From NCBI RefSeq assembly GCF_018001015.1, contig NZ_JAGNIV010000015.1: a stretch of 64,000 bases of DNA; one strand, 5' to 3'. This stretch comes from Phenylobacterium sp. (GTDB taxonomy: Bacteria > Pseudomonadota > Alphaproteobacteria > Caulobacterales > Caulobacteraceae). Shown here piece after piece: positions 42,669 to 64,000 of the stretch (position 1 is the stretch's first letter; each line of letters starts with the position of its first letter). A program made the position numbers and the translations under genes. The notes under the pieces are model-generated. The model was not told where the DNA came from, did no database searches, and worked only from the letters and a program-made list of their open reading frames with translations.

Positions 42669-42670
42669 GT

Positions 42671-43138
42671 ATGACCGCGCCCCTCACCACCTCCACCAGC
42701 CCCTCGCGGGAGCTCATCGCCTTCCGGATCGGCGACCAGGAATTCTGTGTCGACATCATGCAGGTGCGGGAAATCCGCGGCTGGACCACCGCCACGCCCC
42801 TGCCCCGCACCCCTGCCTACATGAAGGGCGTCATCAACCTGCGTGGCGCCGTGCTGCCGATCGTCGACCTGGGCGCGCGCCTGGGCCTGACCACGGCTGA
42901 ACCCAGCGCCCGCCACGTGATCATGGTGGTCAACCAGGGCCACCGAACCCTCGGCCTGCTGGTGGAAGCCGTCAGCGACATCATCAATGTCACCGAGGAC
43001 ATGGTGCAGCCCACCCCCGACGTGGCCTGCGACCAGGTGAAGACCTTCGTGAAAGGCCTGTTCGCAATCGAAGGGCGCATGGTCAGCCTGATCTCTTTAG
43101 ACCGGGTCCTGCCGGAAATCGAAGCGGAGGCCGCATGA
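42671..43138 (+). CDS. cheW: Chemotaxis coupling protein CheW
   Basis: [23 protein letters not shown]...[22 protein letters not shown] is canonical CheW. Confidence 0.9.
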
Positions 43139-46002: not shown

Positions 46003-46367
46003 TGAGCCAATCCGCCGCCCAGACCCCTCGGGTCCTCGCTTCCCTGGCCGACGAGCTGGAACACGCCGGCGCGCTCTGCGATCGGCTGGAGATGCTGGTC
46101 ACCCAGCTTGTCCGCGCCAGCCGCGGCGAGACGCTGGAGATCGCCCTGCATGAGGCGCAGACCGTCGACGTGCTGACCCAGCATCTGGCGGCCCTGGCCA
46201 CCTTCACCCGCAGGCTTTCGACCCAGGCCCAGACCGCGGGCGCTTACGACCTGTCCGACGCGATCGCCGGCGTAACCCTGGGCGACCTCGCCTTGCGTCT
46301 GGCCCAGGTGACCCGGGAAGCCGAAGCTCTCTCCGCCGCTGAGTCCGGCGACCTAGACCTCTTCTAA
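46002..46367 (+). CDS. cheU: Hypothetical protein at the cheU position of the operon
   Basis: 121-aa ORF, ATG overlaps the cheD stop. Assignment rests only on synteny with the C. crescentus che operon. Confidence 0.5.
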   Translation: MSQSAAQTPRVLASLADELEHAGALCDRLEMLVTQLVRASRGETLEIALHEAQTVDVLTQHLAALATFTRRLSTQAQTAGAYDLSDAIAGVTLGDLALRLAQVTREAEALSAAESGDLDLF

Positions 46368-46394
46368 GATCTCAGAGCGAAACCCCCGAACGCC

Positions 46395-46991
46395 ATGGCC
46401 CTAGACCCCAACATTCGGATCAACCTCGATCGCTCGGTCGTGCTGCTCGTGGATGACAATCCACAGGCGCTCGAGGCCCTGAGCGCGATGGTCCGTGGGT
46501 TCGGGGTTCGCAAGCAGTTCAAGTGCGGGTCGGGCGCGGAGGCCATGCACTACGTGAAGAATCAGGAGCTCGACCTGATCATCACCGACGCCCAGATGCC
46601 CGACATGGACGGTTACGACTTCGTCCGCTGGCTGCGCCGCGACGCACCGCCGGACCTGATCTTCACCCCGGTCATCATGCTCACCGGGCATGCTCCGCGA
46701 AGCATGGTGGAGAAGAGCCGCGACTCCGGCGCCAACTTCATCCTCACGCGGCCGTTCACGCCCGAGATTCTGCTCCAGCGGATCTTCTGGGTCGCCCGGG
46801 ACGAACGCCAGATGGTCAAGGCCGCGAACTATGTCGGACCGGACCGTCGCTTCAAGAATCTCGGCCCGCCCCTTGGGATCAAGGGCCGTCGCAAGGACGA
46901 TCTGTCCACCCACGTCGGCGCCGCGACCGATCCCAACATGGATCAGAACGAAGTCGACATGCTTATGAAGCCTGCACGGGTGCAAATTTGA
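46395..46991 (+). CDS. CheY-like receiver with Arg-rich C-terminal extension (cheYIII position; Cle-like)
   Basis: Receiver VLLVDDNPQALEAL...DLIITDAQMPDMDG...FILTRPF followed by about 60 extra residues including YVGPDRRFKNLGPPLGIKGRRKDD. Confidence 0.85.
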   Translation: MALDPNIRINLDRSVVLLVDDNPQALEALSAMVRGFGVRKQFKCGSGAEAMHYVKNQELDLIITDAQMPDMDGYDFVRWLRRDAPPDLIFTPVIMLTGHAPRSMVEKSRDSGANFILTRPFTPEILLQRIFWVARDERQMVKAANYVGPDRRFKNLGPPLGIKGRRKDDLSTHVGAATDPNMDQNEVDMLMKPARVQI

Positions 46992-48727: not shown

Positions 48728-49058
48728 GGCAACCCCCAGATGGAAACGAGACCATGTTTCGCGCCCGCTGAGAACCGTGGAAGACGATGGCCATCAAGGG
48801 GCGGACCATGACCGTAAGGAGTTCATTAACCATTTGGCAAGGCGCTGCATCCCTGGGTCCGGGTAACCCGCCTCGACCGCACACTAGGGTAGTGACCAAA
48901 TCGGTCAGGCGGCAGGCCCTGCCGGTCCGCGTGTTCACCGCCCCGCGCTCGGGCTATGAACCCACCCTGTGCGTGGGCGCGGCGATCTTCATTTTGCTGA
49001 CCACCATCGGCGACCTGCCCAAGCTGACGGGCCGCCACCGGCCCCTGGAGGCGTAACC

Positions 49059-49787
49059 ATGTCGGCTCATGTCCCCCCCGAACTCACCGGCCTCTGGCGA
49101 CGCGAGGTGATCACCACGCCCACGGGCTATCGCGATGAGACCACCCGGGTCCTCTGGCTGCAGACGCGGTCCTGGTACGCCGACATCCGCGTGACGGCCG
49201 ACAGGCCCCGGCGCGAGGGCGCCACGGGTTTCGCCGACTATACCGACGCCGAGCTGATCGCGATGGCGGCGGTCCAGGGCTTCGCCGGCGAACTGACCGC
49301 CACGGGAAACGTCTGCCTCTGGCGGCGCGACCTCGACTACCAGCCGCCCCATGACCTGGTGGACGAGGCGACCTTCACGGTGAGGGACGGCGTCATGATC
49401 GAGGACGGCATCCACTCTCAGTATCAGGAGATCTGGCGCCAGGAGGCGCCGGCCGCCACCCCTCTAGCGGCCTACCGACTGGCCGGCGGGGCCGAGGGCA
49501 TGCTGGTGATCGTTGGGGAACACTTCCTGGAGATCCGCGACCGCGCCACGCCCCTGGCGCCCGCCGAGTCGCTCACCGCCCAGGTGACGGAGGCGCTCGC
49601 CGCCGGGCGCCGCGACGCGGCCATCGCCGCCCTCTCGATGCGCATCTGCTACGGCAAGGTCGCCGGCGCCTCGCGCCTGGTGACCCTGTCGTCCTACCCC
49701 TGGCTGGAGGGGACCGACCTCGGCGCGGCAGACCCGGCGGAGTGGACCCTGATCGACCGTGACGCCCCGGCGCCGGCCCTCTCCTGA
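49059..49787 (+). CDS. Hypothetical protein (242 aa)
   Basis: ATG at 49059. Protein-like composition (LWLQTRSWYADIRV..., VCLWRRDLDYQPPHD...). No domain recognised. Lies upstream of, and on the same strand as, the first NikR-like gene. Confidence 0.55.
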   Translation: MSAHVPPELTGLWRREVITTPTGYRDETTRVLWLQTRSWYADIRVTADRPRREGATGFADYTDAELIAMAAVQGFAGELTATGNVCLWRRDLDYQPPHDLVDEATFTVRDGVMIEDGIHSQYQEIWRQEAPAATPLAAYRLAGGAEGMLVIVGEHFLEIRDRATPLAPAESLTAQVTEALAAGRRDAAIAALSMRICYGKVAGASRLVTLSSYPWLEGTDLGAADPAEWTLIDRDAPAPALS

Positions 49788-49886: not shown

Positions 49887-50390
49887 TTGGATTACGCCTT
49901 GGACCAGGACCTGCTTCCGCAACTCGCCCGCATCGGCATCAGCCTGCCCGGCAAGCTACTGGCCCAGCTCGACGCCATGGTTTCGCGCCGCGGCCTTCCC
50001 AGCCGTTCGCAGATGATCGCCGAGCTGATTCGCCATGAGTTGGCCGACACTGAGGACGGCCTGGCCGACGGCGTCATGGCCGGCACCATCACCCTGATCT
50101 ACCGCGCCGAGAGCGGCCGCGTCCGTCACGCGCTGGCCCGTGTGCAGAGCGAGTATCTGCCGGAAGTCATTTCCTCGCAGCACGTCTTCCTGGAGGAGGA
50201 TCGCTCCCTGGAGGTCCTGCTTGTCCAGGGCTCGGCGGTTCGGCTGCAACAGCTTTGCGACCGTCTGCGACGAGTGCGGGCGGTGCAGCAGCTGAAGCTC
50301 GTGACGACGCGATCGCTGCTGCCCCCGCTGCATGCCCATGGGACGAGCGAGCCCGCGGATCCGCACCGCCGCCGGGCCGGGGCCCGTTAG
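49887..50390 (+). CDS. NikR-fold (CopG ribbon-helix-helix + ACT-like C-domain) transcriptional regulator, paralogue 1
   Basis: RHH: LARIGISLPGKLLAQLDAMVSRRGLPSRSQMIAELIRHEL. C-domain: AGTITLIYRAESGRV...VISSQHVFLEEDRSLEVLLVQG...VQQLKLV aligns by eye with the NikR metal-binding domain. TTG start uncertain. Confidence 0.8.
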   Translation: MDYALDQDLLPQLARIGISLPGKLLAQLDAMVSRRGLPSRSQMIAELIRHELADTEDGLADGVMAGTITLIYRAESGRVRHALARVQSEYLPEVISSQHVFLEEDRSLEVLLVQGSAVRLQQLCDRLRRVRAVQQLKLVTTRSLLPPLHAHGTSEPADPHRRRAGAR

Positions 50391-50678: not shown

Positions 50679-51671
50679 CTAGACCTTCGCCTCCTGCCCG
50701 AAGGCCGGGGTGGCCGGCGCGCCGACACGGCGTTCCTTCAAGTAGGCGAAGGTGGCGATGGTCTGGGCCATGAGGTGGTCCCCCGAGACCAGGCGCGGAT
50801 AGCGGGCGGGCCGATCGGCGCTGACAAAGGCGGGGTGCGGCTCCACCACCGTCCAGTAGTCGCAGGTGGCGAAGAACGGGAAGCTGTAGCGCTCCTCGCC
50901 CACCCGGCGGACCCGGTGCGTGGTGGCGACGAACTCGCCATTGGTCCAGGCCTCCAGCATGTCGCCTATATTGACCACGAAGGCGCCGGGGATCGGCGGG
51001 CAGTCGATCCAGAGCCCCTCGCCGTTCATCACCTCCAGACCTGGCGCCGTGCCGTGCAGCAGGGTGAAGAACTCATAGTCGGTGTGGGCGCCGATCCCCT
51101 GTTGGTCCGGCTCGGCGTGAGGATCGAAGGGATAGTGGATGACGCGAAGCTGGCTGGGCGGGCAGGTGAGGTGCGGCTCGAAGGCCTCCTGCGGCAGGCC
51201 GAGCGCCAGGGCGAAGCCGCCGAACAGCCGCCGGGCCAGGCCCGAGATCGCGGAATAGTAGGCCCCGGCCGCTCTTCTGAAGCCCTCGTCTTGCGGCCAG
51301 AGATTAGGGCCCATCATCGGGGCGCGAGCATCGCAGGCTGGCCAGTCGAGGCCGATGTCATAGGCCTCCTTCCGGTCGATCTTGCCGCCGGGAAACACCT
51401 CCTCGCCCTCCGGAACATAGCCCGAGTGGTTGGAAGAGCGCCCAATGTAGGACGCGAGCTTAGCGCTCATGGGCTGGGCGAAATAGCGCTGAGCGGCGCT
51501 CAGCAATTCGCTGATGAGAGCCGGGTCAAGGCCGTGCCCGGTGACATAGAGAAAGCCCGCCTCCCGCGCGGCGCGGCCCAGCCCGTCAGCTACCGCCTGG
51601 CGGGCCGCCGGGTCGGATAAGGTCAGGCCGGCGATATTCACCACCGGCACAGTCTGGAACCTGCGTGTCAC
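50679..51671 (-). CDS. 2-oxoglutarate/Fe(II)-dependent oxygenase (isopenicillin-N-synthase/EFE-like family)
   Basis: Facial triad HTD in IGAHTDYEFFTLL and distal H in ATTHRV. 2OG-binding RYSFPFF. GTG at 51671 preceded by GAGAGG is preferred over TTG at 51704. Confidence 0.85.
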   Translation of the reverse strand: MTRRFQTVPVVNIAGLTLSDPAARQAVADGLGRAAREAGFLYVTGHGLDPALISELLSAAQRYFAQPMSAKLASYIGRSSNHSGYVPEGEEVFPGGKIDRKEAYDIGLDWPACDARAPMMGPNLWPQDEGFRRAAGAYYSAISGLARRLFGGFALALGLPQEAFEPHLTCPPSQLRVIHYPFDPHAEPDQQGIGAHTDYEFFTLLHGTAPGLEVMNGEGLWIDCPPIPGAFVVNIGDMLEAWTNGEFVATTHRVRRVGEERYSFPFFATCDYWTVVEPHPAFVSADRPARYPRLVSGDHLMAQTIATFAYLKERRVGAPATPAFGQEAKV

Positions 51672-51851
51672 GATCGGCCTCTCAGGCGGCTCGCGTATTA
51701 CCAATTGATCAGCTCGTATTCGCCCGCGCCGGGTGCGGCGGCAGGGCGACAGGCCTGAAGATTGACGCCTGGACGCTCATCCTGGCGCCTCGCTGCGTAG
51801 TTTTGCGGCGCCTTTGGGCCTGGCGGCGCCGCGCGCGCCGGAGCCGTGGAT

Positions 51852-51877
51852 TATTACGATCTGCGCACTCAGTAATA
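51852..51877. promoter_or_regulatory. TATTAC-N14-GTAATA inverted repeat (candidate operator for the NikR-like regulators), site 2
   Basis: Read directly: TTATTACGAT-CTGCGCAC-TCAGTAATAT, about 47 bp upstream of the ABC binding-protein ATG. Shares TATTACGATC with the site at 63086. Confidence 0.5.
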
Positions 51878-51924
51878 TCGCTCGAATGACGGGCGAGGGC
51901 CGGTCTGCGGAACAGGGGATCGAT

Positions 51925-53022
51925 ATGACCAAGTGGCTTACCGGAGTGAAAGTCGCCGCCACGGCGGCCCTTGTCGGCCTGGCGCTGGCCGCCTGCAGCC
52001 CGAAGACGGAGACCAAGACCGCCGCGGCCCCGGCCGCCAAGACCTACACCGTCGGCTGGACCATCTATGCCGGCTGGATGCCCTGGCCCTACGCCGAACA
52101 GGCCGGGATCGTGAAGAAGTGGTCCGACAAATACGGCGTCGACATCAAGGTGGTGCAGATCAACGACTATGTCGAAAGCCTGAACCAGTTCACCGCCGGC
52201 AAGCTGGACGCGGTGACCTCCACCAACATGGACGCCCTGACCATCCCGGCCGCCGCCGGGAAGGACACCACCTTCCTGATGATCGGCGACTATTCCAACG
52301 GCAACGACGGCATCGTCCTGAAGGGCGGCGCGACCCTGGCCGACATCAAGGGCCGTCCGGTCAACCTCGTCGAGAACTCCGTTTCCCACTACCTGCTGGC
52401 CCGCGGGCTGGAGAGCGCCGGCCTGAAGATGACCGACGTGAAGGTGGTCAACACCTCAGACGCCGACATCGTGGCTGCCTTCGGCGCGCCGGAGACCAAG
52501 GCCGTCGTGCCGTGGAACCCGCAACTGACCGAAATCAAGAAGATGCCCGGCGCAAAGCAGGTTTTCGATTCTTCCAAGATCCCCGGCGAGATCCTCGACG
52601 GCCTGATCATCTCCACCGAGGTGGCCAAGGCCAATCCGAACCTGGCCAAGGCCCTGGCCGGCATCTGGTATGAAACCACCATGCTGATGAACCAGCAGGA
52701 CGCCGCCGGTCAGGCCGCCCGCGAGGCCATGGCCAAGCTCTCCGGCACCGACCTGGCCGGCTACGAGAGCCAGCTGAAGACCACCTACCTCTATTACGAT
52801 CCCAAGGCGGCCCTGGCGGCCACCGCCAGCCCCGACTTGGTCGCGGCCAATGACAAGGTGCGCAAGTTCAGCTTCACCGCCGGCCTGTTCGGCCAAGGCG
52901 CCAAGTCGGTGGACGACATCGGCATCGAGTTCCCGGGCGGCAAGGTCCTGGGCGACCCGAAGAACGTGAAGCTGCGCTTCGACCCGACCTACGTGCAGAT
53001 GGCCGCGGACGGCAAGCTGTAG
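51925..53022 (+). CDS. ABC transporter substrate-binding lipoprotein (NitT/TauT family, urea-carboxylase-region type)
   Basis: Lipobox LALAAC|S. NMT1/TauA-like fold signatures (WTIYAGWMPW..., DAVTSTNMDAL). Followed by permease and ATPase genes. Confidence 0.85.
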   Translation: MTKWLTGVKVAATAALVGLALAACSPKTETKTAAAPAAKTYTVGWTIYAGWMPWPYAEQAGIVKKWSDKYGVDIKVVQINDYVESLNQFTAGKLDAVTSTNMDALTIPAAAGKDTTFLMIGDYSNGNDGIVLKGGATLADIKGRPVNLVENSVSHYLLARGLESAGLKMTDVKVVNTSDADIVAAFGAPETKAVVPWNPQLTEIKKMPGAKQVFDSSKIPGEILDGLIISTEVAKANPNLAKALAGIWYETTMLMNQQDAAGQAAREAMAKLSGTDLAGYESQLKTTYLYYDPKAALAATASPDLVAANDKVRKFSFTAGLFGQGAKSVDDIGIEFPGGKVLGDPKNVKLRFDPTYVQMAADGKL

Positions 53023-53061: not shown

Positions 53062-53886
53062 ATGCGCCGTCTGCTGAACGCGCGGCCGCGGGTCGGGGGT
53101 CGCCTCCTTCTGGGCCTGCTGCCGATCCTGGCGCTGGTCCTGCTCTATCTGGTGGTCGCCACCGCGCGCCACACCGAGAACCCCCGCGACAAGATCACCC
53201 CGATCCCGGCCGCCATGGCCGCCGGCATCCAGACCATGGCCTTCGAGGCCGATCCCCGCACCGGGGAAGTCCCGCTGGTGGCCGACACCAAGGCCAGTTT
53301 GCAGCGTTTGGGTGTCGCGGTCGGACTGGCGGCGGCGACCACCCTGGTGCTTGGACTGACCATCGGCCTGCTGCCCTACGTGCGAGCGAGCCTGGGGCCC
53401 TTGGTCGCCACCATATCGGTGATCCCGCCGATCGCGGTCCTGCCTATCCTTTTCATTGTCTTCGGACTGGGGGAGACCTCGAAGATCGTGCTGATCTTCG
53501 TGGGGATCACGCCCGTGATGGTCCGCGACCTGGCCACCCACGTGGCCGCCATTCCCGAGGAACAGATCGTCAAGGCCCAGACGCTGGGCGCCTCCACCTG
53601 GCTCACCCTGCTCCGCGTCGCCCTGCCCCAGGCCCTGCCGCGCCTGATCGACTCCCTGCGGCTCTCCCTCTGCCCGGCCTGGGTCTATCTGATCTCGGCC
53701 GAGGCCATCGCCTCGGACGTCGGCCTGGGCTACCGGATCTTCCTGGTGCGCCGGTATCTGGCCATGGACATCATCCTCCCTTACGTCGTCTGGATCTCGC
53801 TGCTGGCGGTGATCATGGACCTCGCCCTGCAGGCTTGGAGCCGCACCAGCTTCGCCTGGGCCCACCCGCCGCGGAACGCCCGATGA
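53062..53886 (+). CDS. ABC transporter permease (NitT/TauT family)
   Basis: 6 TM. EAA-like loop EEQIVKAQTLGASTWLTLLRVALPQALPRLIDSL. Confidence 0.9.
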   Translation: MRRLLNARPRVGGRLLLGLLPILALVLLYLVVATARHTENPRDKITPIPAAMAAGIQTMAFEADPRTGEVPLVADTKASLQRLGVAVGLAAATTLVLGLTIGLLPYVRASLGPLVATISVIPPIAVLPILFIVFGLGETSKIVLIFVGITPVMVRDLATHVAAIPEEQIVKAQTLGASTWLTLLRVALPQALPRLIDSLRLSLCPAWVYLISAEAIASDVGLGYRIFLVRRYLAMDIILPYVVWISLLAVIMDLALQAWSRTSFAWAHPPRNAR

Positions 53887-54653
53887 GCAAGCTGGCCTTC
53901 CGCAACGTCTGGGTCGAGTACGGTTCGAAGATCGTCCTGGAGAAGGTCGATCTGGAGGTCGCCGACGGGGCGTTCGTCTCCATCATCGGGCCGTCCGGCG
54001 CGGGCAAGTCCACCTTCCTGCGCCTGGCGCTGGGCCAGGAGGCGCCGACTCGCGGCGCGATCCTGCTGGACGGCGAGCCGCTGTCGCCCGAGCCCGGCCC
54101 CGACCGTGGCGTGGTCTTCCAGCGCTACTCGGTGTTCCCACACATGAACGCCCTAGACAACGTCACCTTCGGCCTGGATTGCGCCGGCTCGCCCCTGCGG
54201 GGCCGGCTCGGCGGCAAGGCCAGGAAGCAGGCCCGCGAAGCGGCCAAGGCCCTGCTGGCGCGGGTGGGGCTGGAGCACAATTTCAAGACCTATCCCCGGG
54301 CCCTGTCGGGGGGCATGCAGCAGCGGCTGGCCCTGGCCCAGGCCCTGATCACGCGGCCACGCATCCTGCTCCTCGACGAGCCGTTCGGGGCGCTGGACCC
54401 TGGCGTGCGCCTGGACATGCACGCCCTGATCACCGAGCTCTGGACCGAGCACAAGCTCACCATCCTGATGGTCACCCACGACATCAAGGAGGCCTTCAAG
54501 CTGGGCACCCGAGTGGTCGCCTTCGACAAACGCCGCCACGATCCCCAGGCGCCGCACCGCTACGGCTCGACAGCGGTCTACGACTTCCCGCTGGACGACA
54601 AGAAGAGCCGCGCCGTGCCGCCGGTGCTGAAGGCGCTCGTCAGCGCACCTTGA
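53883..54653 (+). CDS. ABC transporter ATP-binding protein
   Basis: Walker A GPSGAGKST, signature LSGGMQQRLALA, Walker B ILLLDEPFGALD. ATGA overlap with the permease gene. Confidence 0.9.
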   Translation: MSKLAFRNVWVEYGSKIVLEKVDLEVADGAFVSIIGPSGAGKSTFLRLALGQEAPTRGAILLDGEPLSPEPGPDRGVVFQRYSVFPHMNALDNVTFGLDCAGSPLRGRLGGKARKQAREAAKALLARVGLEHNFKTYPRALSGGMQQRLALAQALITRPRILLLDEPFGALDPGVRLDMHALITELWTEHKLTILMVTHDIKEAFKLGTRVVAFDKRRHDPQAPHRYGSTAVYDFPLDDKKSRAVPPVLKALVSAP

Positions 54654-55686
54654 GCGCCAGGATCACCAGCAGGGCCGAGAGGCCCAGGTGGACCAGCATG
54701 AAGCGCACGAGCACCTGGGTGTTGGACCAGCCCAGCTCCTTGCGGCAGTGGTCGTGCAGCGGGAAGCGGACGCCGGCCAGGATCTTCAGGCCGAAGAACC
54801 GCAGCAGGGCCACCTTCACCAGGCCGGTGGCGCCGTTCATCAGGATCACCGAGCCCACCAGCAGCAGGAACAGCGGATTGTTGGTGGCCACCACCAGCAT
54901 GCCGATCAGCAGGCCCAGCGGCCGCGACCCGGCATCCCCCATCAGCACCAGGCTGGGGGCGGCGTTGTACCAGAGGTAGCCCGCCACACAGCCCACCATC
55001 AGGAAGGCCATGATCGCCCAGTTGGCGCCCTCGCGGGTAAAGGGGACGTTGAGGTGGCCGGCCACCACCTCGTTGCCGAGCACGGCGTAGAGCAGGCCCC
55101 CCAGCAGCAGGATGGCGGTGCCGGTCAAGCTCCCCGAGACCCCATCGACGCCATCGGAGCAGTTTGTGGCGTTGATGGACAGCCAGATGATCCCGCTGGC
55201 CAGCGGGATGGAAAGCCAGGGCCCCAGGATGAGCGTCCCCTTCCAAATGGGCAGCCAGAGGGCGACCGGTTCGAAGCCGTAAATCACCATGGCTGCGCCC
55301 ACCGCGATGGCGGCGTCCATCACGGCCAGCTGGTACTCCGAGAACCCGCCGCGCCGGTCGTCGAAATAGCCCACCAGCATGGCCGCCAGCATCAACGGCA
55401 GGGTCAGCAGGCAGCGGGCGCCGAACGGCACGAAGATCAGACAGGCGGCGCAGAAGATGCTGACGAAGATCAGCCCGGCGCTGATGGGCTTGCCGACGCT
55501 CATCTCGGCGTTGACCGCGAAGGCGCGGCCGCGGTCCGTTGGCAGGCGGGACCAGAGCCGGGGCAGCAGGATCCAGGTGGTGAGCGCGCAAAGGGCGAAG
55601 CCGATCCCCGCCAGGAAGAAGAAGGACTCGAAAAGCCGCAGGGGTCCCCAGGCGTAGCCCAGGGTCGAATGGATCGCGCTCAGCAT
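54640..55686 (-). CDS. MraY-like polyprenyl-phosphate phospho-sugar transferase (GT4 family paralogue)
   Basis: VGYFDDRRG, INATNCSDGVDGVSGS, LMGDAGSRPLG and PLHDHCRKELGWS parallel the MraY DDxxK, NxxNxxDGxDG, GDxGS and PxHHHFExxGW motifs. About 10 TM. Last gene on the carboxylase strand. Confidence 0.8.
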   Translation of the reverse strand: MLSAIHSTLGYAWGPLRLFESFFFLAGIGFALCALTTWILLPRLWSRLPTDRGRAFAVNAEMSVGKPISAGLIFVSIFCAACLIFVPFGARCLLTLPLMLAAMLVGYFDDRRGGFSEYQLAVMDAAIAVGAAMVIYGFEPVALWLPIWKGTLILGPWLSIPLASGIIWLSINATNCSDGVDGVSGSLTGTAILLLGGLLYAVLGNEVVAGHLNVPFTREGANWAIMAFLMVGCVAGYLWYNAAPSLVLMGDAGSRPLGLLIGMLVVATNNPLFLLLVGSVILMNGATGLVKVALLRFFGLKILAGVRFPLHDHCRKELGWSNTQVLVRFMLVHLGLSALLVILALKVR

Positions 55687-55746: not shown

Positions 55747-57525
55747 CTAGGCCGGGAGCCCTGCGATATAGGCGCGCCATCCGCCCAGCGCGGTGATGTC
55801 CTCGGCGCCGACGATGGCGCGGGGTTCGGCGACGAAACCCTTCACCGAGCCGCCGCCCTCCAGGGTGACCGTGCCGATGGCCAAGGGCGCGGGCACCTCG
55901 ACGACGAAGCTGCCGAAGGCCTCGACGCCCAGCTCATAGACCTCCACCTCGATGGCCCCGCCGCCCTCGCCCACATGGATCAGGGCCGGCTTGAAGGGGG
56001 TGGTGTTGGTCATGGCGAACAGCTTGTAGGCGGGCGCGGTCTTGGTGCGGCTGACCAGCTTGGCGTCGCGGGAGGTGAGCTGCCAGTGCAGGGGCATGCC
56101 GGCCAGGTGGGCGCCCACGACGGCGAGCTTCACGGTCTGGGGCTTGCCGGCGGTGTCGAGGGCAGGCGCGTCGGGCATGGGGGAGATCTCCTCGTAGCGG
56201 CGGGCCAGGTCGAGCAGCACGTCGTCCGCCCAGGCCTGCCCCACCAGGGTGACGCCGAAGCCGGTGTCATTGTCGCGGAACCCGGCCGGGACCGCGATGG
56301 CGCTCATGTCCAGCAGGTTGACGAAGTTGGTGTAGAGCCCGAGCGCGCCGTTCAGGGCGAAGGGCTCGGCAGTAACCTCGGCCAGGCGGTAGATGGTGGG
56401 CGTGGTGGGCAGCAGCAGGACATCGACCTGGGGCCAGATGGCCTCCGCCGCGCGGGCATGGTCGGCTAGGGCATAGAGGCCGCGGAAGGTGTCGACGCCG
56501 GTGACCCCGAACCCGCCCTGCAGGATGGCGCGCACCGTGGGGTTCACCGCCGCCGGGGTCTCCCGCAGCAGGGTCTCGATGGCTGCGGTGCGCTCAGCAA
56601 CCCAGGGTCCGCTGTAGAGCAGCTTGGCGGCCTCCAGCAGGGGCTCGATGTCGATCTCGACGGTGACGCCTCCCATTGCGGTGACCCGCTCGACAGCTCG
56701 CGCATAGATGGCCTGGGCCTGGTCGTCGCCCATGAAGATCAGTTGATCCGCCTTCGGAACGCCGAAGCGGAATGAGGCGCCCAGCAGGTCGGTCGCGGAG
56801 GGCGCGCGTCGCGAATAGGTGTCGGAGGGATCGAAGGCCGCGACCACTGAGTCCACCAGGGCCGCGTCGGCGACGTCGTTGGCCAGCACCGTCACGCAAT
56901 CGAGGGAGCGGCAGGCGGGCACGACGCCACTTGTGCTCCAGCGGCCCTTGGTGGGTTTGAAGCCGATCAGGCCGTTGAAGGCCGCGGGCACCCGGCCCGA
57001 GCCTGCCGTGTCGGTCCCGAGCGCGAAGGCCACCAGGCCGGCCGCCACCGCTACCGCCGAGCCCGAACTCGACCCGCCGCTGACATAGGCCAGATTGTAG
57101 ACGCAGGCCGGCGCGCCATAGGGGCTGCGGGCGCCCACCAGGCCGGTGGCGAACTGATCCAGGTTGGTCTTGCCCATGCAGATCGCGCCCGCCGCCAGCA
57201 GCCGGGCGGCCACCGTGGCCGTGTCCTCGGGGTCGTAGGCATAGGCCGGGCACGCTGCCGTGGTGGGCAGGCCCGCCACGTCGATATTGTCCTTCACCGC
57301 GAAGGGCACGCCCGCCAGGGGCAGGCGCTCGCCGGCGGCCACCCGGGCGTCCACGGCGCGGGCCTGGGTCAGCACGGTTTGCGGATCGGGCCGCATGATC
57401 CAGGCGTGGGCCTGGACCTCGTCATAGGCGGCGATGGCCTCCAGGGCCTGGGCGATGACGCTTTCGGCCGAACGGGCGCCGCTGGAGACGGCCGACGCGA
57501 TGGCGGTGATGGAAAGGCGGGTCAT
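55747..57525 (-). CDS. atzF: Allophanate hydrolase (amidase-signature N-domain + AtzF C-domain)
   Basis: Amidase signature GGSSSGSAVAVAAG...GTDTAGSGRVPAA, with the C-terminal allophanate-hydrolase-specific domain. Immediately downstream of the carboxylase gene. Confidence 0.9.
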   Translation of the reverse strand: MTRLSITAIASAVSSGARSAESVIAQALEAIAAYDEVQAHAWIMRPDPQTVLTQARAVDARVAAGERLPLAGVPFAVKDNIDVAGLPTTAACPAYAYDPEDTATVAARLLAAGAICMGKTNLDQFATGLVGARSPYGAPACVYNLAYVSGGSSSGSAVAVAAGLVAFALGTDTAGSGRVPAAFNGLIGFKPTKGRWSTSGVVPACRSLDCVTVLANDVADAALVDSVVAAFDPSDTYSRRAPSATDLLGASFRFGVPKADQLIFMGDDQAQAIYARAVERVTAMGGVTVEIDIEPLLEAAKLLYSGPWVAERTAAIETLLRETPAAVNPTVRAILQGGFGVTGVDTFRGLYALADHARAAEAIWPQVDVLLLPTTPTIYRLAEVTAEPFALNGALGLYTNFVNLLDMSAIAVPAGFRDNDTGFGVTLVGQAWADDVLLDLARRYEEISPMPDAPALDTAGKPQTVKLAVVGAHLAGMPLHWQLTSRDAKLVSRTKTAPAYKLFAMTNTTPFKPALIHVGEGGGAIEVEVYELGVEAFGSFVVEVPAPLAIGTVTLEGGGSVKGFVAEPRAIVGAEDITALGGWRAYIAGLPA

Positions 57526-57530
57526 GGGGC

Positions 57531-60500
57531 TCAGGCCGGTTCGAGGGCGATCATCGGGGCGCCGGGCGCGATCGGCTGGCGTTCCTGGGCGTAGACCTGG
57601 CGGACGACGCCGGCGCTGGGGCTGGCCACGTCGCATTCGGTCTTCATGGCCTCGATCACCGCGATGATCGCGCCCTTCTCCACCCGGTCACCTACCTCCA
57701 CCAGCATCTTCCAGACGCTGCCCCCCAGGGGGGCCTCGACGAACTCCGAGCCGCCAGGCGCCTCGAAGGCGGCGGCGGGCGCGTCGTCTATGGCTTCGCT
57801 CGACAGCGCCTCGACCCGGGCGAACTCGCCCTTCACCTCCCAGTCGGCGCGCTCGGCCTCGAAGGCCGCCTGGCGGGTCGCCTGGAAGGCCGCGATGGAC
57901 TCGGCGTTGTCGGCCAACATCTTGCGATAGTCGGAGAGCCTGAAGGTCTCCTCGTCGATGCGGATCTCGCGGCGGCCAAGCGGGAAATCGCGGCGCCACT
58001 CGGTGAGCTCCTCGTGGCTCACCGGGAAGAACCGGATCTGGTCGAAGAACCGCAGCAGCCAGGGCTTGCCCTCGGTGAAGGCGTTCGTCTGGCGATAGGT
58101 GTTCCAGACCTGGATGGTGCGCCCGAACAGCTGATAGCCGCCGGGACCCTCCATGCCGTAGATGCACATATAGGCCCCGCCGATGCCGACGACGTTGGGG
58201 GGCGTCCAGGTGCGGGCCGGGTTGTACTTCGTCGTCACCAGCCTGTGGCGGGGATCGACCGGGGTGGCGACTGGGGCGCCCAGATAGACGTCCCCCAGGC
58301 CCATCACCAGGTAGCGGGCGTCGAAGACGATGCGGTGGACGTCATCCTCGCTCTCCAGGCCGTTGATGCGCCGGATGAACTCGATGTTGTCGGGGCACCA
58401 GGGGGCGTCATCGCGCACTGAGGCCATGTACTTGTCGATGGTCTCGTAGATCGCCGGGTCCTTCCAGGACAGCGGCAGGTGGATCACCCGGCTGGGGATC
58501 TCGAAGTCGTCCAGGCCGCCCAGGCTCTCCTCCATGTCGGCGAGGGCCTGCAGCAAGCGGACCTGGGGCAGGACGCGGCTGTCATAGTGGACCTGCAGGG
58601 AGCGGATACCGGGGGTGATGTCGATGACGCCAGGCAGGGCCTGGGCCTGCAGTTCCAGCATCAGGGCGTGGATGCGCAGGCGCAGTTCGAGGTCCAGAAT
58701 GATGGGGCCATATTCGACCAGGAGATGCCGGTCCCCTTGGCGGCGATAGACCACCTGCGGCCGGTGGCCCACAGCCTCGATCGTCGCCAGCACCGGGTTG
58801 GTGATCCCGTCGTCGAACAGGTCGCGGTGCGTCGCCTTGGCGGGCGAGGGCCCTGGCTCCAGGCTCGCCACCAGCCGGTCCTGCTCGGCCTCCGCCAGGG
58901 TGGCGGCGGTGTCGCCCACCACCTCGAAGGTGACCGTATCGCCTGGCGCCAGCTGCCCCACCTTCCACAGGTCGGCCGCGATCACCACGAAGGGACAGAC
59001 GAACCCGCCGAGCGAGGGCCCGTCCGGCCCCAGGATGATCGGCATGTCGCCGGTGAAGTCGACAGCCCCGATCGCGTAGGCGTTATCGTGGATGTTGGAG
59101 GGGTGCAGCCCCGCCTCCCCGCCGTCCCGCCGCGCCCAGTGTGGCTTTGGGCCGATCAGGCGAACCCCGGTGCGGTTGGAATTGTAGTGCACCTTCCACT
59201 CGGCCGAGCGGACCATGGCGATGTCGGCTGGCGTGAAGAAGTCCGGGGCGCCGTGGGGTCCCGCCAGGACGCGGATCGCCCAGGCCTTGCTGAGGCTGGG
59301 GCGCGCCGCCATCGCCAGGGGCTGCGCCACGTCGGCCACCTCGGCGTCCCCCAGGTGCAGCACGTCGCCGGCCGCCAGGGTCCGTCCCGCATGGCCGCCG
59401 AAGCCGCCAAGGGTGAAGCTGGAGCGGCTGCCGAGATAGGCCGGGACATCCAGCCCGCCGCGCACCAGCAGATAGGCCCGCAGCCCCGAACCCTTCACCC
59501 GGGCGATCTTCAGGGTCTGGCCCGCGGCGATGGTGATCGGGGCGTAGGTGGCCACCGGCTCGCCGTCGAGGCTGGCCTCCAGCTCGGCGCCGGTCAGACA
59601 GACCACGGCCTCATGGTTGAAGATCAGGGCGGGGCCAAGGGCGGTGATTTCCAGCCCGGCCGCGCCCTCGGGATTGCCGAGAAGCTTATTGCCCAGCCGA
59701 AACGCGAGCGCGTCCATCGGCCCTGACGGCGGCACGCCGACGTCCCAGTAGCCGAGGCGGCCGGGATAGTCCTGAACCGTGGTGGCTGGTCCGCCGCTCA
59801 GCACACGGATGGTGCGGGGCTGGAACACGATGTCAGCCAGGGACCGCGTCGAGACCTGGCCGCTGACGAAGGCCTCGCTGCGCGCCACCTGCCGAAGCCA
59901 TTCGAGATTGGTCTCCAGGCCGTAGAGGGCGGCGCCGTCCAGCGCCTGTTGCAGGGCGCGGACGGCGCTCGCGCGGTCATCGGCGGTGACGATCAGCTTG
60001 GCCAGCAGCGGGTCGTAGTGGGCGCTGACTTCCGAGCCGTCGGTGATCCAGGTGTCGACCCGGACATCCTGAGGGAAACTGGCCTTGGTGAGCACACCCG
60101 ACGAGGGGCGATAGTCCTGGCCCGGGTCCTCGGCATAGAGCCGCGCCTGAATCGATGCGCCCCTTGCCGTGCCATCGAAGGTGTCGAGGAAACCGTAGTC
60201 CCCGGCCGCCCCGCGGATCATCCATTCCACCAGGTCGACTCCGGTGACCTGCTCGGTGACGCCGTGCTCTACCTGCAGGCGGGTGTTCACCTCCAGGAAG
60301 AAGAAGTCGTCGCGCTCGGAGTCGTAGAGGAACTCCACCGTGCCGGCCGAGCGGTAGTCGGCGGCGGCGCACAGACGTACGGCCGCCGCCATCAAGGCGG
60401 CGCGGGTGGCGGCCGGAAGGTGGGACGCGGGCGTCTCCTCGATGACCTTCTGGTTACGGCGCTGCAGGGAGCAGTCGCGCTCACCCAGGGCCACGACCTT

Positions 60501-61154
60501 GCCGGCGCCGTCGCCGAACACCTGCACCTCGATGTGGCGGGCCTGGCGCACATAGCGCTCCAGGAACACGCCCGCGTCCGAGAAATTGGATCCCGCCAGA
60601 CGCGCCACGGCGGCGAAGGCCTCGGCCACGGCCTCGGGCGTCTCGCAGACCCGCATCCCGATGCCGCCGCCGCCAGCGGTGGCCTTGAGAATCACCGGGA
60701 AGCCGATGCGCACCGCCGCCTCGCGCGCGGCGTCGGCGTCGGTCAGCAGGTCGGTGCCTGGGGCGAGCGGCACCCCCTGGGCCTGAGCCAGGTCGCGGGC
60801 CGTATGCTTCAAGCCGAAGGCCAGGATATTGGCGGGCGTCGGGCCGATGAAAGCGATGCCTGCGGCCTCGCAGCGCTCTGCGAAGATGGTGTTCTCGCTG
60901 AGGAAGCCGTAGCCCGGATGGATGGCCTGGGCGCCCGTGGCCTTGGCGGCGGCCAGGATGGCGTCGATGTCGAGATAGGACTGGGCGGCGGGCGCGGGCC
61001 CGATCCTGACGGCCTCGTCGGCCTGGGAGACGTGCAGGCTGCCCGCGTCGGCGTCGGAGAACACCGCCACCGAGCCGACACCCATGGTCTTCAGGGTTCG
61101 GATGATCCGGCAGGCGATGGCGCCCCGGTTCGCGATCAGGACCTTGTCGAACAC
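57531..61154 (-). CDS. Biotin-dependent urea carboxylase family enzyme (urea or guanidine carboxylase)
   Basis: 1207 aa. Biotin carboxylase N-terminus MFDKVLIANRGAIACRIIRT..., KipA/KipI-like (allophanate hydrolase subunit 1/2) central domains, C-terminal biotinyl motif IEAMKTE. Confidence 0.9.
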   Translation of the reverse strand: MFDKVLIANRGAIACRIIRTLKTMGVGSVAVFSDADAGSLHVSQADEAVRIGPAPAAQSYLDIDAILAAAKATGAQAIHPGYGFLSENTIFAERCEAAGIAFIGPTPANILAFGLKHTARDLAQAQGVPLAPGTDLLTDADAAREAAVRIGFPVILKATAGGGGIGMRVCETPEAVAEAFAAVARLAGSNFSDAGVFLERYVRQARHIEVQVFGDGAGKVVALGERDCSLQRRNQKVIEETPASHLPAATRAALMAAAVRLCAAADYRSAGTVEFLYDSERDDFFFLEVNTRLQVEHGVTEQVTGVDLVEWMIRGAAGDYGFLDTFDGTARGASIQARLYAEDPGQDYRPSSGVLTKASFPQDVRVDTWITDGSEVSAHYDPLLAKLIVTADDRASAVRALQQALDGAALYGLETNLEWLRQVARSEAFVSGQVSTRSLADIVFQPRTIRVLSGGPATTVQDYPGRLGYWDVGVPPSGPMDALAFRLGNKLLGNPEGAAGLEITALGPALIFNHEAVVCLTGAELEASLDGEPVATYAPITIAAGQTLKIARVKGSGLRAYLLVRGGLDVPAYLGSRSSFTLGGFGGHAGRTLAAGDVLHLGDAEVADVAQPLAMAARPSLSKAWAIRVLAGPHGAPDFFTPADIAMVRSAEWKVHYNSNRTGVRLIGPKPHWARRDGGEAGLHPSNIHDNAYAIGAVDFTGDMPIILGPDGPSLGGFVCPFVVIAADLWKVGQLAPGDTVTFEVVGDTAATLAEAEQDRLVASLEPGPSPAKATHRDLFDDGITNPVLATIEAVGHRPQVVYRRQGDRHLLVEYGPIILDLELRLRIHALMLELQAQALPGVIDITPGIRSLQVHYDSRVLPQVRLLQALADMEESLGGLDDFEIPSRVIHLPLSWKDPAIYETIDKYMASVRDDAPWCPDNIEFIRRINGLESEDDVHRIVFDARYLVMGLGDVYLGAPVATPVDPRHRLVTTKYNPARTWTPPNVVGIGGAYMCIYGMEGPGGYQLFGRTIQVWNTYRQTNAFTEGKPWLLRFFDQIRFFPVSHEELTEWRRDFPLGRREIRIDEETFRLSDYRKMLADNAESIAAFQATRQAAFEAERADWEVKGEFARVEALSSEAIDDAPAAAFEAPGGSEFVEAPLGGSVWKMLVEVGDRVEKGAIIAVIEAMKTECDVASPSAGVVRQVYAQERQPIAPGAPMIALEPA

Positions 61155-61159
61155 TGATC

Positions 61160-61789
61160 CTATCCCGCGATGATCATGCGCACGGGCGTCGGATTGAAGC
61201 CGTTGCAGGGATTGTTGATCTGCGGGCAGTTGGAGACGATGGCTACCAGATCCATTTCCGCGCGCAGATCGACATAGAGGCCCGGCGCCGAGATGCCGTC
61301 GACGATGCCCAGGGCCCCGTCAGCCTCAACCGGCACGTTCATGAACCAGTTGATGTTGGAGACCATGTCGCGCTTGCCGCGCCCGTGCTTGGCGTTGGCC
61401 TGCAGGAAGTTCTCGACGCAGGCGTGCTGGCTCTTGGTGTGGTGGCCGTAGCGCAGGGTGTTGCTCTCGCAGGAGCACGCCCCGCCGATGGTGTCGTGAT
61501 ACGCCACCGAGGTGCCCGTGACCGTGGCCATGGCGGCGCCCTCGTTGGAGAGCAGCACCGAGCCCGCGCGCAGGAAGATATTGCCCTGGGCGGCCATGGT
61601 GTCCTGGGCCGAATAGCGCTCGGCGTCGTCGGCCAGCGCATACATCAGAAAATCGACGGCCTGGTTGCCCTCTAGGTCGATGATACGCAGGGTCTGGCCC
61701 TTGCGCACCACCGCGTCCCAGGGCGCGCGGGCGGGAACGATGTCGTCGCGGACGATGGCGCCGGTTAGACCGGCCAGGGAACTGCTCAT
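61160..61789 (-). CDS. Urea-carboxylase-associated protein, DUF1989 family (CgdB-like)
   Basis: RIIDLEGNQAVDFLMY...GGACSCESN...NINWFMNVPV is typical of DUF1989. Paired with a second DUF1989 gene next to the carboxylase. Confidence 0.85.
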   Translation of the reverse strand: MSSSLAGLTGAIVRDDIVPARAPWDAVVRKGQTLRIIDLEGNQAVDFLMYALADDAERYSAQDTMAAQGNIFLRAGSVLLSNEGAAMATVTGTSVAYHDTIGGACSCESNTLRYGHHTKSQHACVENFLQANAKHGRGKRDMVSNINWFMNVPVEADGALGIVDGISAPGLYVDLRAEMDLVAIVSNCPQINNPCNGFNPTPVRMIIAG

Positions 61790-62610
61790 CGGCTGTACTC
61801 GGCCTCGACATTGAGGAAGGCGCGCAGGCCCTCCGGGGTGGCGGTGCGCAGGGGGTCATCGGCCGGCGTCACCGGGCCGCGCCAGGCGCTGACCCGCAGC
61901 GGGGTGACGGTGTAGTCGGACCGGGCGTCCAGCACGTGGGGGCAGTTGGCCAGCACCACGATGACGTCCATCTCCGCGCGGAGGATCAGGCTGCGGCCCG
62001 GGGCGAAGGGGCCGTGCTGCGGCAAGAGCGATCCGTCGTCCTCGACCTTCATGCCCTTGAACCAGTTGAGGCAGGGGTGGATGTCGCGCCGCGCCAGGCC
62101 GAACTTGGCGACACCGAGACTGAACCGGTCCCGCGCATTGGGATGCGGGCCCCAGTTGTCGCCTGTCCCGTACTTCGCCGCATTGGTGGCCTGGTTGGAA
62201 GCGCCGCAGAAGGCGTCATGGGTCCCGGCGCCGTCCTCCAGCACGCTGAACATCACCCGGCCCATGTCCGAGAGCACCAGCTTGCCGGCGCCTAGATAGG
62301 CGTTCCACTGGACCTTCAGGGTGTCGGCCACGTTCAGCCGCTCGATGGGCCGCTCGGCGTTGAAGATCAGCATCGAGGCGCAGGCGTCGCCGGCCAGGTC
62401 GGTCAGTTGTAGACGCGCGCCGCGGTTCAGCCGCTTGGCGCCGTAGCCGCCCGGCGCGATCGTCTCGGCCCAGACCATGTCAGCCGACGAGACCCCGTGG
62501 GGCAGTTCGCTCACCGCGCTGGCGGGCAGGATCGGCATGGCCTCGACCTGCGTCCCGGCCATGGCCCGCGCATGAGCCTGGGCGGCATAGGGGCTGGCGG
62601 TGTCGGTCAT
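61786..62610 (-). CDS. Urea-carboxylase-associated protein, DUF1989 family (CgdA-like)
   Basis: RLQLTDLAGDACASMLIFN...NARDRFSLG...CLNWFKGMKV is typical of DUF1989. 4-nt overlaps on both sides. Confidence 0.85.
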   Translation of the reverse strand: MTDTASPYAAQAHARAMAGTQVEAMPILPASAVSELPHGVSSADMVWAETIAPGGYGAKRLNRGARLQLTDLAGDACASMLIFNAERPIERLNVADTLKVQWNAYLGAGKLVLSDMGRVMFSVLEDGAGTHDAFCGASNQATNAAKYGTGDNWGPHPNARDRFSLGVAKFGLARRDIHPCLNWFKGMKVEDDGSLLPQHGPFAPGRSLILRAEMDVIVVLANCPHVLDARSDYTVTPLRVSAWRGPVTPADDPLRTATPEGLRAFLNVEAEYSR

Positions 62611-63068
62611 ATCGCCTCCTCCGGATCGAACAGAGCATGCAGGGGCGGCAGCAAGGCGGTGGTGGTCACCAGCTTGAGTTGCTGCACGCCGCGGATCTTT
62701 CGCAGCTCGTCGCAGAGGTCGCGCAGGCGCTCCGACGGCCCCTGGACGAGCAGCACTTCCAGGGACTGGTCGTCCTCCAGGAAGACGTGCTGGGAGGAGA
62801 TCACCTCCTCCAGATAGGCCTGCTGGGCCTGGGCCAGGGCCTGGCGGACCCGGCCGCTCTCGGTGCGGTAGATCAGCGTAATAGTGCCGGCCAGGATCAC
62901 GCCGGCCCGCTCCTCGCCATGCTCGGCCAGCTCGTGGCGGATCAGTTCGGCGATCATCTGAGAGCGGCTGGGCAGGCCGCGTTCGGTGACCATGGCGTCG
63001 AGCTGGACCACCAGTTCGGCCGGCATGCTCAGACTCAGTCGCGCCAGGGGAAGGCTCTCGAGGTTCAT
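62607..63068 (-). CDS. NikR-fold (RHH + ACT-like) transcriptional regulator, paralogue 2; first gene of the carboxylase operon
   Basis: LARLSLSMPAELVVQLDAMVTERGLPSRSQMIAELIRHEL...AGTITLIYRTESGRV...VISSQHVFLEDDQSLEVLLVQG...VQQLKLV. Roughly 70 percent identical by eye to the 49887 paralogue. Overlaps the next gene by 4 nt. Confidence 0.8.
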   Translation of the reverse strand: MNLESLPLARLSLSMPAELVVQLDAMVTERGLPSRSQMIAELIRHELAEHGEERAGVILAGTITLIYRTESGRVRQALAQAQQAYLEEVISSQHVFLEDDQSLEVLLVQGPSERLRDLCDELRKIRGVQQLKLVTTTALLPPLHALFDPEEAI

Positions 63069-63085: not shown

Positions 63086-63113
63086 GTATTACGATCCGAT
63101 CAAATCGTAATAC
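63086..63113. promoter_or_regulatory. Perfect 28-bp palindrome GTATTACGAT-N8-ATCGTAATAC (candidate operator), site 1
   Basis: Read directly. 10+10 bp perfect inverted repeat about 18 bp upstream of the ATG (63068) of the NikR-like gene heading the carboxylase operon. Confidence 0.55.
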
Positions 63114-63193
63114 GAGATAGGCCGTTGGCGCGTCTCCGGCGCCCGTCTCTTAGGCAGCCGCGGGTCTGGGCGCCTATCGTCGTGGCGATGGCC

Positions 63194-63580
63194 TCAGGGA
63201 AGCTCCAGGCTCTCGATATAGGCGGCGATGTCATCGGCCTCGCCGGCGGTCAGACCGAGCTTGGGCATATCGTAGTGGCGGCCCTCGGCGATGGTCTCCA
63301 TGCGCTGCTGGAAACTCAGGGCGGTCATACCGCGCCGCATGTCCCGAAACGGGGTCGAGGGAGACCGGGGGCTCTCGCCGTAGAGCCCCAGGCCATGACA
63401 GCCACCGCAGCGGAGTTCGGCCAGGTCTCGGCCGCGTTCAACCGCCACCTCCGCGGCGGGTCGCTTTGCAGACGAGGTAGACACAGGCGCGCTCGCGCAA
63501 GCCGCGACGACAAGCAGCGGAGCGATGACGCGAATCTTGAGCACCCTGGACACTCCGTCGAGCCCCCGTTTGGCGTCCAT
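63194..63580 (-). CDS. Small c-type cytochrome (lipoprotein-like signal)
   Basis: Haem motif CGGCHG with a distal Met candidate in HYDMPK. N-terminal VIAPLLVVAACAS lipobox-like signal. Start uncertain. Confidence 0.7.
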   Translation of the reverse strand: MDAKRGLDGVSRVLKIRVIAPLLVVAACASAPVSTSSAKRPAAEVAVERGRDLAELRCGGCHGLGLYGESPRSPSTPFRDMRRGMTALSFQQRMETIAEGRHYDMPKLGLTAGEADDIAAYIESLELP

Positions 63581-63747: not shown

Positions 63748-64000
63748 ATGAAGAAGCGCATCTGGCTGGGCGCCACCGCCCTCGTGATCGCCGCTGGCGT
63801 CGGCGTCGCCGCGATGAACAAGCCGGCCATCCTGGGCATGGTCGCCCGTGCGAGGCTGCCGCATATCGAACCTAACCGTCCGGTGAGTTGGGCCCAGGGC
63901 CCCGCCGCGCAGGCGCCCGGTGAGGCGCCTCCGAACGTGGTCTTTATCCTCGTCGACGACATGGGCTTCAACGACATCACCTTCAACGGCGGCGGCGTAG
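63748..64000 (+). CDS. Sulfatase family protein (partial, 5' end only)
   Basis: MKKRIWLGATALVIAAGV signal/anchor, then PNVVFILVDDMGFNDITFNGGG, the conserved N-terminal sulfatase block. Runs off the window end. Confidence 0.75.
   Translation, partial: MKKRIWLGATALVIAAGVGVAAMNKPAILGMVARARLPHIEPNRPVSWAQGPAAQAPGEAPPNVVFILVDDMGFNDITFNGGGV

Follow-up and report, generated by a model that had tools for sequence, protein, structure and literature searches.

Palindromes beside a NikR paralog that lacks most nickel ligands are predicted operators of a guanidine-utilisation regulon in Phenylobacterium

What does an operator in the style of a nickel regulator do at genes for guanidine breakdown? The question is raised by a contig of Phenylobacterium sp. 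(Alphaproteobacteria, Caulobacteraceae; NZ_JAGNIV010000015.1), of which a stretch of 64 kb with 68% G+C, hereafter the window, was analysed. An island in this window encodes a urea/guanidine carboxylase pathway, an ATP-binding cassette (ABC) importer, a 2-oxoglutarate (2OG)-Fe(II) oxygenase and two NikR-like proteins, regulator A and its paralog B, and palindromes of the frame TATTAC-N14-GTAATA stand at its promoters. We consider it rather probable that these palindromes are operators through which a NikR paralog controls its own gene and represses a regulon for guanidine utilisation, with guanidine as the probable effector. Within this statement, the identity of the binding paralog, the sign of regulation and the effector are the parts that we infer.

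Operator 1 (63086-63113) reads GTATTACGAT-CCGATCAA-ATCGTAATAC, a perfect 10+10 inverted repeat with arms 8 nt apart, and ends 18 bp from the ATG (63068, minus strand) of the gene for regulator A. Operator 2 (51851-51878; TTATTACGATCTGCGCACTCAGTAATAT) lies 5' of the ABC substrate-binding protein gene, with 47 bp between the end of the site and the ATG at 51925. The degenerate operator 3 (51695-51722; GTATTACCAATTGATCAGCTCGTATTCG) lies 5' of the oxygenase gene, about 24 bp from the likely GTG start at 51671 (about 37 bp from the centre of the site); its left half-site, GTATTAC, is intact and its right half-site is degraded to GTATTCG. With up to two mismatches, TATTAC-N14-GTAATA matches the window three times against a mean of 0.04 in shuffled sequences, and none of 100 shuffles reached three matches. 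A 32-nt weight matrix trained on 69 unique sites from other genomes, with the window left out, gave 42.7, 35.5 and 8.4 bits for sites 1, 2 and 3, respectively (training sites, 31-51 bits), and its scan of the window returned no further position of at least 8 bits. The original prediction, made from the letters of the window, was thus right about the three sequences, the perfect symmetry of site 1 and an occurrence beyond chance. It had also noted the 10-mer TATTACGATC as shared by sites 1 and 2, which it is, but the same 10-mer occurs once more inside the binding-protein gene (52792-52801), where it has neither a partner half-site nor a weight-matrix score; this intragenic copy is probably due to chance.

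The sites recur at the same genes in related genomes. A scan of one genome per species identified 333 loci encoding relatives of the regulator, of which the best 80 were retained (1.1 Mb). In 78 of these 80 loci, TATTAC-N14-GTAATA with at most one mismatch lies immediately 5' of the regulator gene, and no second match of this kind occurs within about 16 kb. In one further locus (L080) a TonB-dependent receptor gene separates the site from the regulator gene, and one locus (L076) has no site. Exactly one match of at least 14 bits was found in each of 79 of the 80 loci. The orthologs of site 1 are carried by Phenylobacterium, Caulobacter, other Caulobacteraceae and the gammaproteobacterial Steroidobacteraceae; the genomes closest to the window also belong to Phenylobacterium and encode regulators 93-96% identical to A. 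Among the carriers are the culturable Caulobacter vibrioides DSM 9893 (L036) and Caulobacter sp. Root343 (L029). Alignments anchored on the motif have constant half-sites, with the central 12-14 bases and both flanks varying by lineage; by this comparison of sequences the motif is a phylogenetic footprint. The gene order regulator-DUF1989-DUF1989-carboxylase-hydrolase is kept throughout the loci, and the ABC operon usually follows in convergent orientation.

Further loci were gathered through the binding protein and through regulator homologs on long contigs, giving 167 loci (1.78 Mb) that contain 204 strong sites, defined as those scoring at least 20 bits. More than half (107) stand 5' of the regulator gene, with the operator centre a median of 34 bp from the start codon (range 18-50); 69 stand 5' of the binding-protein gene (median 64 bp to the start) and 17 5' of the oxygenase gene (median 36 bp). 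Of the remaining 11, three are unidentified, and the others are truncated equivalents of these positions or stand before TonB-dependent receptor genes or an FA_hydroxylase-like gene. In a second arrangement (L127-L165), the transporter, regulator and carboxylase genes share one strand, and sites lie 5' of the binding-protein and regulator genes. The positions before the regulator, ABC and oxygenase genes, which the original prediction had proposed as a shared operator, are therefore conserved in relatives. Its concern that the motif might recur at many intragenic positions is not borne out, since none of the 204 strong sites falls within a mapped cluster gene. The consensus of the sites, GTATTAC-N14-GTAATAC, spans 28 bp and has the operator form of the NikR family; its length and frame match published NikR boxes (PMC545781) more closely than had been stated. 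A chance origin of the palindromes is ruled out by the shuffles together with the near-absence of stray matrix matches in the 1.78 Mb.

The relatives also clarify the weak third copy, which had been noted before the oxygenase GTG. Sites on the oxygenase side of related loci range from 14.8 bits, in the nearest relative (L088), to 44.6 bits. Because same-position sites elsewhere reach this upper value, site 3 is best described as a decayed ortholog of a real site: a genuine, positionally conserved predicted operator that has degraded in the lineage of the window. The two operators of the divergent region are also regularly spaced. Their centres are 156 bp apart in the window; among 21 loci drawn from L084 and L088-L118, 19 have a spacing of 154-158 bp and two of 172 bp. 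The usual distance corresponds to about 15 helical turns, which could be a sign that two bound tetramers are phased or looped together.

Operators are also found 5' of TonB-dependent receptor genes and of genes for membrane FA_hydroxylase-like proteins in other loci (L080:728-759, L163:4514-4545, L147:1492-1523, and also L134 and L157), which implies a regulon wider than the three transcription units of the window. A separate observation concerns the hexamer GGCGCC, which is enriched six- to sevenfold across loci in the 120 nt 5' of both operator classes, with 1.7-2.0 copies per region where the background is 0.28. It lies preferentially 24, 39, 54 and 69 nt away from the operator, with a period of 15 nt. 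In the window, it occurs upstream of site 1 at 63138-63143 and 63169-63174, and upstream of site 2 at 51784-51789, 51807-51812 and 51825-51830. These repeats look like a second shared cis element for another factor. One paper on Caulobacter NtrC, a paper in which the carboxylase operon does not appear, was checked and contained no matching motif.

Palindromes of this kind could in principle work through hairpin formation in RNA or DNA, for instance as a terminator, attenuator or processing site. The RNA of site 1 does form a hairpin, with 12 bp and -12.8 kcal/mol (z = -3.3). The RNAs of sites 2 and 3, by contrast, fold no better than shuffles (z about 0), and their best folds leave the half-sites unpaired; the sites are not followed by a T run, and nothing resembling a terminator was detected at site 1. 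Among the 159 unique 28-mers, positions 2-7 and 22-27 (TATTAC and GTAATA) are at least 95% invariant rather than covarying, and the mirrored positions 8-14 pair at the rate expected of independent variation (for example, 0.53 observed and 0.53 expected). Invariant half-sites, a free spacer and the absence of covariation indicate a predicted protein-read operator rather than a hairpin, a reading that we regard as extremely improbable and dropped on the basis of the missing covariation and the unfolded sites 2 and 3. That site 1 is perfectly symmetric over 10+10 positions is incidental, because only positions 2-7 and 22-27 reach this level of invariance.

The proteins most likely to read such sites are encoded in the island itself. 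Regulator A (62607-63068, minus strand) has 153 residues with ribbon-helix-helix and NikR_C domains, and regulator B (49887-50390, plus strand) is a paralog 69% identical to A (tblastn). The N-terminal domain matches Pfam RHH_1 in both (7.5e-6 for A, 4.5e-7 for B), and the C-terminal domain of A matches PF08753 (NikR_C) at 5.7e-22 over profile positions 1-77 of 77. The best match of A among solved structures is Pyrococcus horikoshii NikR (2e-24, residues 7-137). An AlphaFold2 model of A (mean predicted local distance difference test score 69.7; 82-90 in the C-terminal domain) has two ribbon-helix-helix helices and a beta-alpha-beta-beta-alpha-beta domain; it is a monomer model and as such does not display the NikR ligand pocket, which lies at the tetramer interface. 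All 50 top matches of this model in a Foldseek search of the PDB were NikR structures, and isolated NikR C-terminal domains matched it with template modelling scores of 0.82-0.90 and root-mean-square deviations of 1.2-2.0 A. The predicted DNA-reading strand of the A-type proteins, LARLSxSLP, is as conserved as the operator half-sites. We consider that the sites are very probably operators of the NikR-like protein or proteins of the island.

The metal site has not been preserved along with the fold. Residues of the square-planar nickel site (H76', H87, H89 and C95 in E. coli numbering) were located by alignment with P. horikoshii NikR and with E. coli NikR, whose ligand numbering was consistent. 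Three of the four ligands are replaced in both paralogs of the window, in distant members and in all 115 A-type proteins: H76 by Q or variable residues, H89 by F or L, and C95 by S or A (N in one protein). The typical A-type motif at these positions is ISSQHVFLEDDQSLEV, and neither A nor B has the complete square-planar site. Conserved residues of regulator A that are candidates for its replacement are H94, F96, E98, D100 and S102. Regulator A also falls below the cut-offs of all five NCBIfam NikR models (best score, 96.6 bits against 105 for NF003381). The control of nickel uptake or nickel enzymes that is usual in the NikR family was not found either, as none of the 204 strong sites adjoins a nickel transporter or nickel enzyme gene. 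Given the loss of three of the four ligands, the signal of the regulator is most likely something other than nickel. Hundreds of homologs exist in genome and metagenome data, annotated in public records as CopG-family or 'nickel-responsive' regulators.

The genes downstream of the operators suggest what that signal might be. Behind regulator A, on the minus strand, lie two DUF1989 genes of the carboxyguanidine deiminase subunit type, encoding urea-amidolyase-associated proteins 1 (61786-62610; TIGR03425, 2e-88) and 2 (61160-61789; TIGR03424, 1.9e-99), which together we take to be the carboxyguanidine deiminase CgdAB. They are followed by a urea/guanidine carboxylase of 1207 residues (57531-61154; TIGR02712, 1829 bits) and an allophanate hydrolase (open reading frame 55747-57636, with the true start likely near 57525; NF006043, TIGR02713). 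On the plus strand, the ABC operon encodes a substrate-binding protein of the urea-carboxylase-neighbour type (51925-53022; TIGR03427, 6.8e-166), a permease (53062-53886; BPD_transp_1) and an ATPase (53883-54653; ABC_tran). The gene content is that of a guanidine regulon, with TIGR02712, TIGR03424/03425, an allophanate hydrolase and TIGR03427 with its ABC importer all present, and on the strength of these family assignments the set is the guanidine carboxylase pathway. In this pathway, the carboxylase makes carboxyguanidine, which a deiminase converts to allophanate, and allophanate hydrolase completes the breakdown (PMC12704784, PMC10927577).

The oxygenase gene (50679-51671, minus strand; Pfam 2OG-FeII_Oxy and DIOX_N) and the ABC operon are divergent. 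Among solved structures the oxygenase is most similar to PDB 9ovh, named an ethylene/succinate-forming enzyme (1e-56), and enzymes of that family hydroxylate arginine with release of guanidine (PMC12329707). The oxygenase may therefore be a putative guanidine-producing step within the regulon. In halophiles, the pathway is accompanied by a 2OG dioxygenase and a 'hypothetical' lyase that turn methylguanidine into guanidine (PMC12508155). The open reading frame preceding paralog B (48969-49787, plus strand) has a weak, sub-threshold match to HRI1 and is of a type often paired with the oxygenase across loci; it might be a candidate lyase partner, as in methylguanidine demethylation. A weight-matrix search 5' of this open reading frame and 5' of the paralog B gene detected no operator.

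Loci without the operator provide a further pointer to the ligand. In four of 11 such loci retrieved through the binding protein, a guanidine-I riboswitch (RF00442, 90-93 bits) lies directly 5' of the binding-protein or DUF1989 gene (L136:957-1054, L153:14-111, L161:656-765 and L162:1665-1766). In a scan of the window and 19 operator-bearing loci, no Rfam family reached its gathering score, and thus no such aptamer was detected. Homologous operons thus appear to be governed in some bacteria by an RNA that senses guanidine and, as predicted here, by an operator and a protein in others. The original prediction had included neither this riboswitch control elsewhere, nor the guanidine pathway as the regulon, nor the missing nickel ligands.

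These observations can be assembled into a mechanism. The palindromes would be read by the ribbon-helix-helix regulators of the island, A and its paralog B. By analogy with NikR, a tetramer would place one ribbon-helix-helix dimer on each half-site, TATTAC(G) and (C)GTAATA, with the centres of the half-sites two helical turns apart. Three units would come under its control: the autoregulated operon of regulator A, the two DUF1989 proteins, the carboxylase and the allophanate hydrolase; the ABC importer operon; and the divergent oxygenase gene. Operator 1, at 18-46 bp from the start codon, would cover part of the core promoter or the bases transcribed first. The distance of 18-50 bp between operator centre and start at regulator genes leaves no room for the downstream promoter and transcript start that an activator would need, which argues for repression, and we think it likely that the regulator acts as a repressor. 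Since the regulator heads a catabolic operon, its ligand should lift this repression. Guanidine, or a close relative such as methylguanidine, would act as the inducer that releases the repressor, so that the protein would fill the role of the guanidine-I riboswitch in this clade. That guanidine itself is the direct effector seems to us nearly an even call, leaning slightly against; other possible ligands are methylguanidine, an intermediate of the pathway and a metabolite that reflects nitrogen status. More tentatively still, a branch of NikR may have rebuilt its nickel pocket into a sensor of free guanidine (guanidinium) and, in Caulobacteraceae, Steroidobacteraceae and further proteobacteria, have taken the place of the guanidine-I riboswitch.

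Several observations weigh against this mechanism. A scan with the sigma-70 consensus found no promoter match near site 1 or site 2; because it located no promoter, the proposed overlap rests on the distances and on an oriented TTGAC, which points toward the gene within the spacer in 27 of 85 unique sites and in the other orientation in one (the window has TTGATC there). The centre of operator 2 lies 60 bp from the start codon, a distance equally compatible with activation, and site 3 of the window, at 8.4 bits, may no longer be functional. The equivalent of H87 is kept in most members of the family (N in some), and some metal binding is thus possible. Paralog B differs from A at a predicted base-contacting residue of the DNA-reading strand, LARIGISLP in B against LARLSLSMP in A (Gly for Ser), a difference retained in ten orthologs of B (LARIG[IV]SLP); A and B may read symmetric and asymmetric operators differently. 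Lastly, seven of the 11 operator-less loci have neither riboswitch nor operator in the sequence examined, a small sample on which to base an either/or pattern.

Alternative readings of the same operators have to be weighed against guanidine-responsive repression. One of these keeps the operator and the repressor and changes the effector to urea, carboxyguanidine, allophanate, methylguanidine, a substrate of the oxygenase, or a nitrogen-status co-repressor acting on the ACT-like domain. The modelled beta-alpha-beta-beta-alpha-beta sensor fold is typical of ACT-like domains that bind small molecules; the oxygenase, the TonB-dependent receptors and the hydroxylase-like protein within the regulon suggest substrates larger than guanidine, and elsewhere the pathway travels with the dioxygenase/lyase pair that makes guanidine from methylguanidine (PMC12508155). 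A regulator placed within a catabolic operon, with sites confined to its regulon, has the pattern of a substrate-specific local regulator rather than of a global nitrogen sensor, however, and the riboswitch that takes its place elsewhere is specific for guanidine. We judge another effector to be unlikely. A second alternative is a nickel-sparing switch, in which nickel or some other metal would be sensed at a non-canonical site: metal-bound regulator would repress the nickel-free carboxylase route for urea and guanidine when nickel is plentiful, thereby favouring urease or guanidine hydrolase. Both operator and fold are those of NikR, canonical NikR represses in its nickel-bound form, consistent with an operator placed over the promoter, the carboxylase is a nickel-free alternative to urease (PMC2667541) and to the Ni-dependent guanidine hydrolase (PMC12704784), and the H87-equivalent histidine persists in most members.

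This switch nevertheless appears improbable, as the residues found at the other three ligand positions in every member examined (F/L, S/A and a variable residue) are not square-planar nickel binders, the regulator scores below every curated NikR cut-off, no nickel gene stands beside any strong site, and homologous operons elsewhere answer to guanidine through riboswitches. A further possibility is that the sites are read by a transcription factor from outside the island, for instance a canonical NikR or some unrelated protein, and that the NikR-like gene is no more than a regulated passenger. The box is near those of canonical NikR proteins, so that cross-reaction by a true NikR of the same genome is conceivable. 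The constant company of the site and the NikR-like gene, in 78 of 80 genomes and across two proteobacterial classes, makes this explanation very improbable, as do the suitability of the geometry for a NikR-fold tetramer and a DNA-reading strand as conserved as the half-sites. Guanidine-responsive repression by the island's own regulator remains the reading that we prefer, and one may speculate that the nickel-free nature of the carboxylase route explains how a NikR came to this operon.

The surroundings of the island differ among relatives. Between the allophanate hydrolase and ABC ATPase genes, the window carries a gene for an MraY-like glycosyltransferase family 4 membrane protein (54640-55686, minus strand) that is present only here and in the nearest relatives (L002-L006); elsewhere, the carboxylase and ABC operons are directly convergent. 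A small cytochrome c gene (63194-63568, minus strand) lies just upstream of operator 1, also in the nearest relatives, and a sulfatase-like gene, judged from its translation alone, starts at the window edge (63749-64000, plus strand). An unrelated chemotaxis cluster occupies about 37900-46400, upstream of the island, where translations of the open reading frames resemble a methyl-accepting protein, CheY-like receivers and CheA-, CheW-, CheR-, CheB- and CheD-like proteins.

The type of operator and the protein fold are already known; new are the loss of the metal site, the set of regulated genes and the effector that we consider probable. A literature search for a NikR paralog tied to urea/guanidine carboxylase returned nothing, although its coverage was incomplete and the result is not proof of absence. 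According to a 2025 review, guanidine riboswitches are the sole receptors for guanidine yet known other than transporters and enzymes. If our reading is true, the regulator would be the first known guanidine-binding transcription factor and a protein counterpart of the guanidine-I riboswitch. The candidate is concrete and widespread: its operator and regulon are defined, and it is a small soluble protein of known fold that can be tested directly. A metalloregulator fold that retains its DNA-reading head and operator geometry while its sensor site is exchanged would inform how regulators change ligand, and could be of use for building guanidine-responsive genetic switches. The same observations call for caution in annotating these proteins as 'nickel-responsive regulators'.

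The relation to known systems can be followed from the operator to the regulon. Published NikR signals are inverted repeats 27-28 bp long. The enterobacterial form is GTATGAT-N13/14-ATCATAC, and the predicted box of the delta-proteobacteria is GTGTTAC-N13/14-GTAACAC (Rodionov et al. 2004, PMC545781). The delta-proteobacterial box shares with the sites described here the 7-bp half-site frame and the N14 spacing, and differs by one transition per half-site (GTGTTAC against GTATTAC). Those boxes stand 5' of nickel transporter and hydrogenase genes, however, and their regulators are taken to be nickel-responsive, whereas both the regulon and the sensor site differ here. The E. coli nik operator, GTATGA-N16-TCATAC, likewise spans 28 bp as an inverted repeat whose half-sites are separated by two helical turns, and our sites written in the same frame, GTATTA-N16-TAATAC, differ from it by one base per half-site. 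E. coli NikR shares with regulator A the ribbon-helix-helix plus NikR_C architecture and fold, and an operator over the promoter in the manner of a repressor. It differs in that three of its four nickel ligands are missing from the Phenylobacterium protein, in governing nickel uptake instead of guanidine uptake and breakdown, and probably in its logic, as a ligand that releases the repressor, which we infer from the catabolic operon, would act in the opposite sense to nickel.

Helicobacter pylori NikR provides a parallel for a regulon of this shape, having several operators in one genome, including at nitrogen-metabolism genes (urease). It belongs to the same family and fold as the regulator described here, but is nickel-responsive with intact ligands, recognises a different and more degenerate box, and acts as both activator and repressor. 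In gene content, the nearest counterpart is the regulon of the guanidine-I (ykkC) riboswitch, which comprises the same genes: carboxylase, DUF1989 proteins, allophanate hydrolase and this type of ABC transporter. There, the sensor is an RNA in the 5' leader; in Phenylobacterium and its relatives, a DNA operator and a predicted protein sensor stand in its place.

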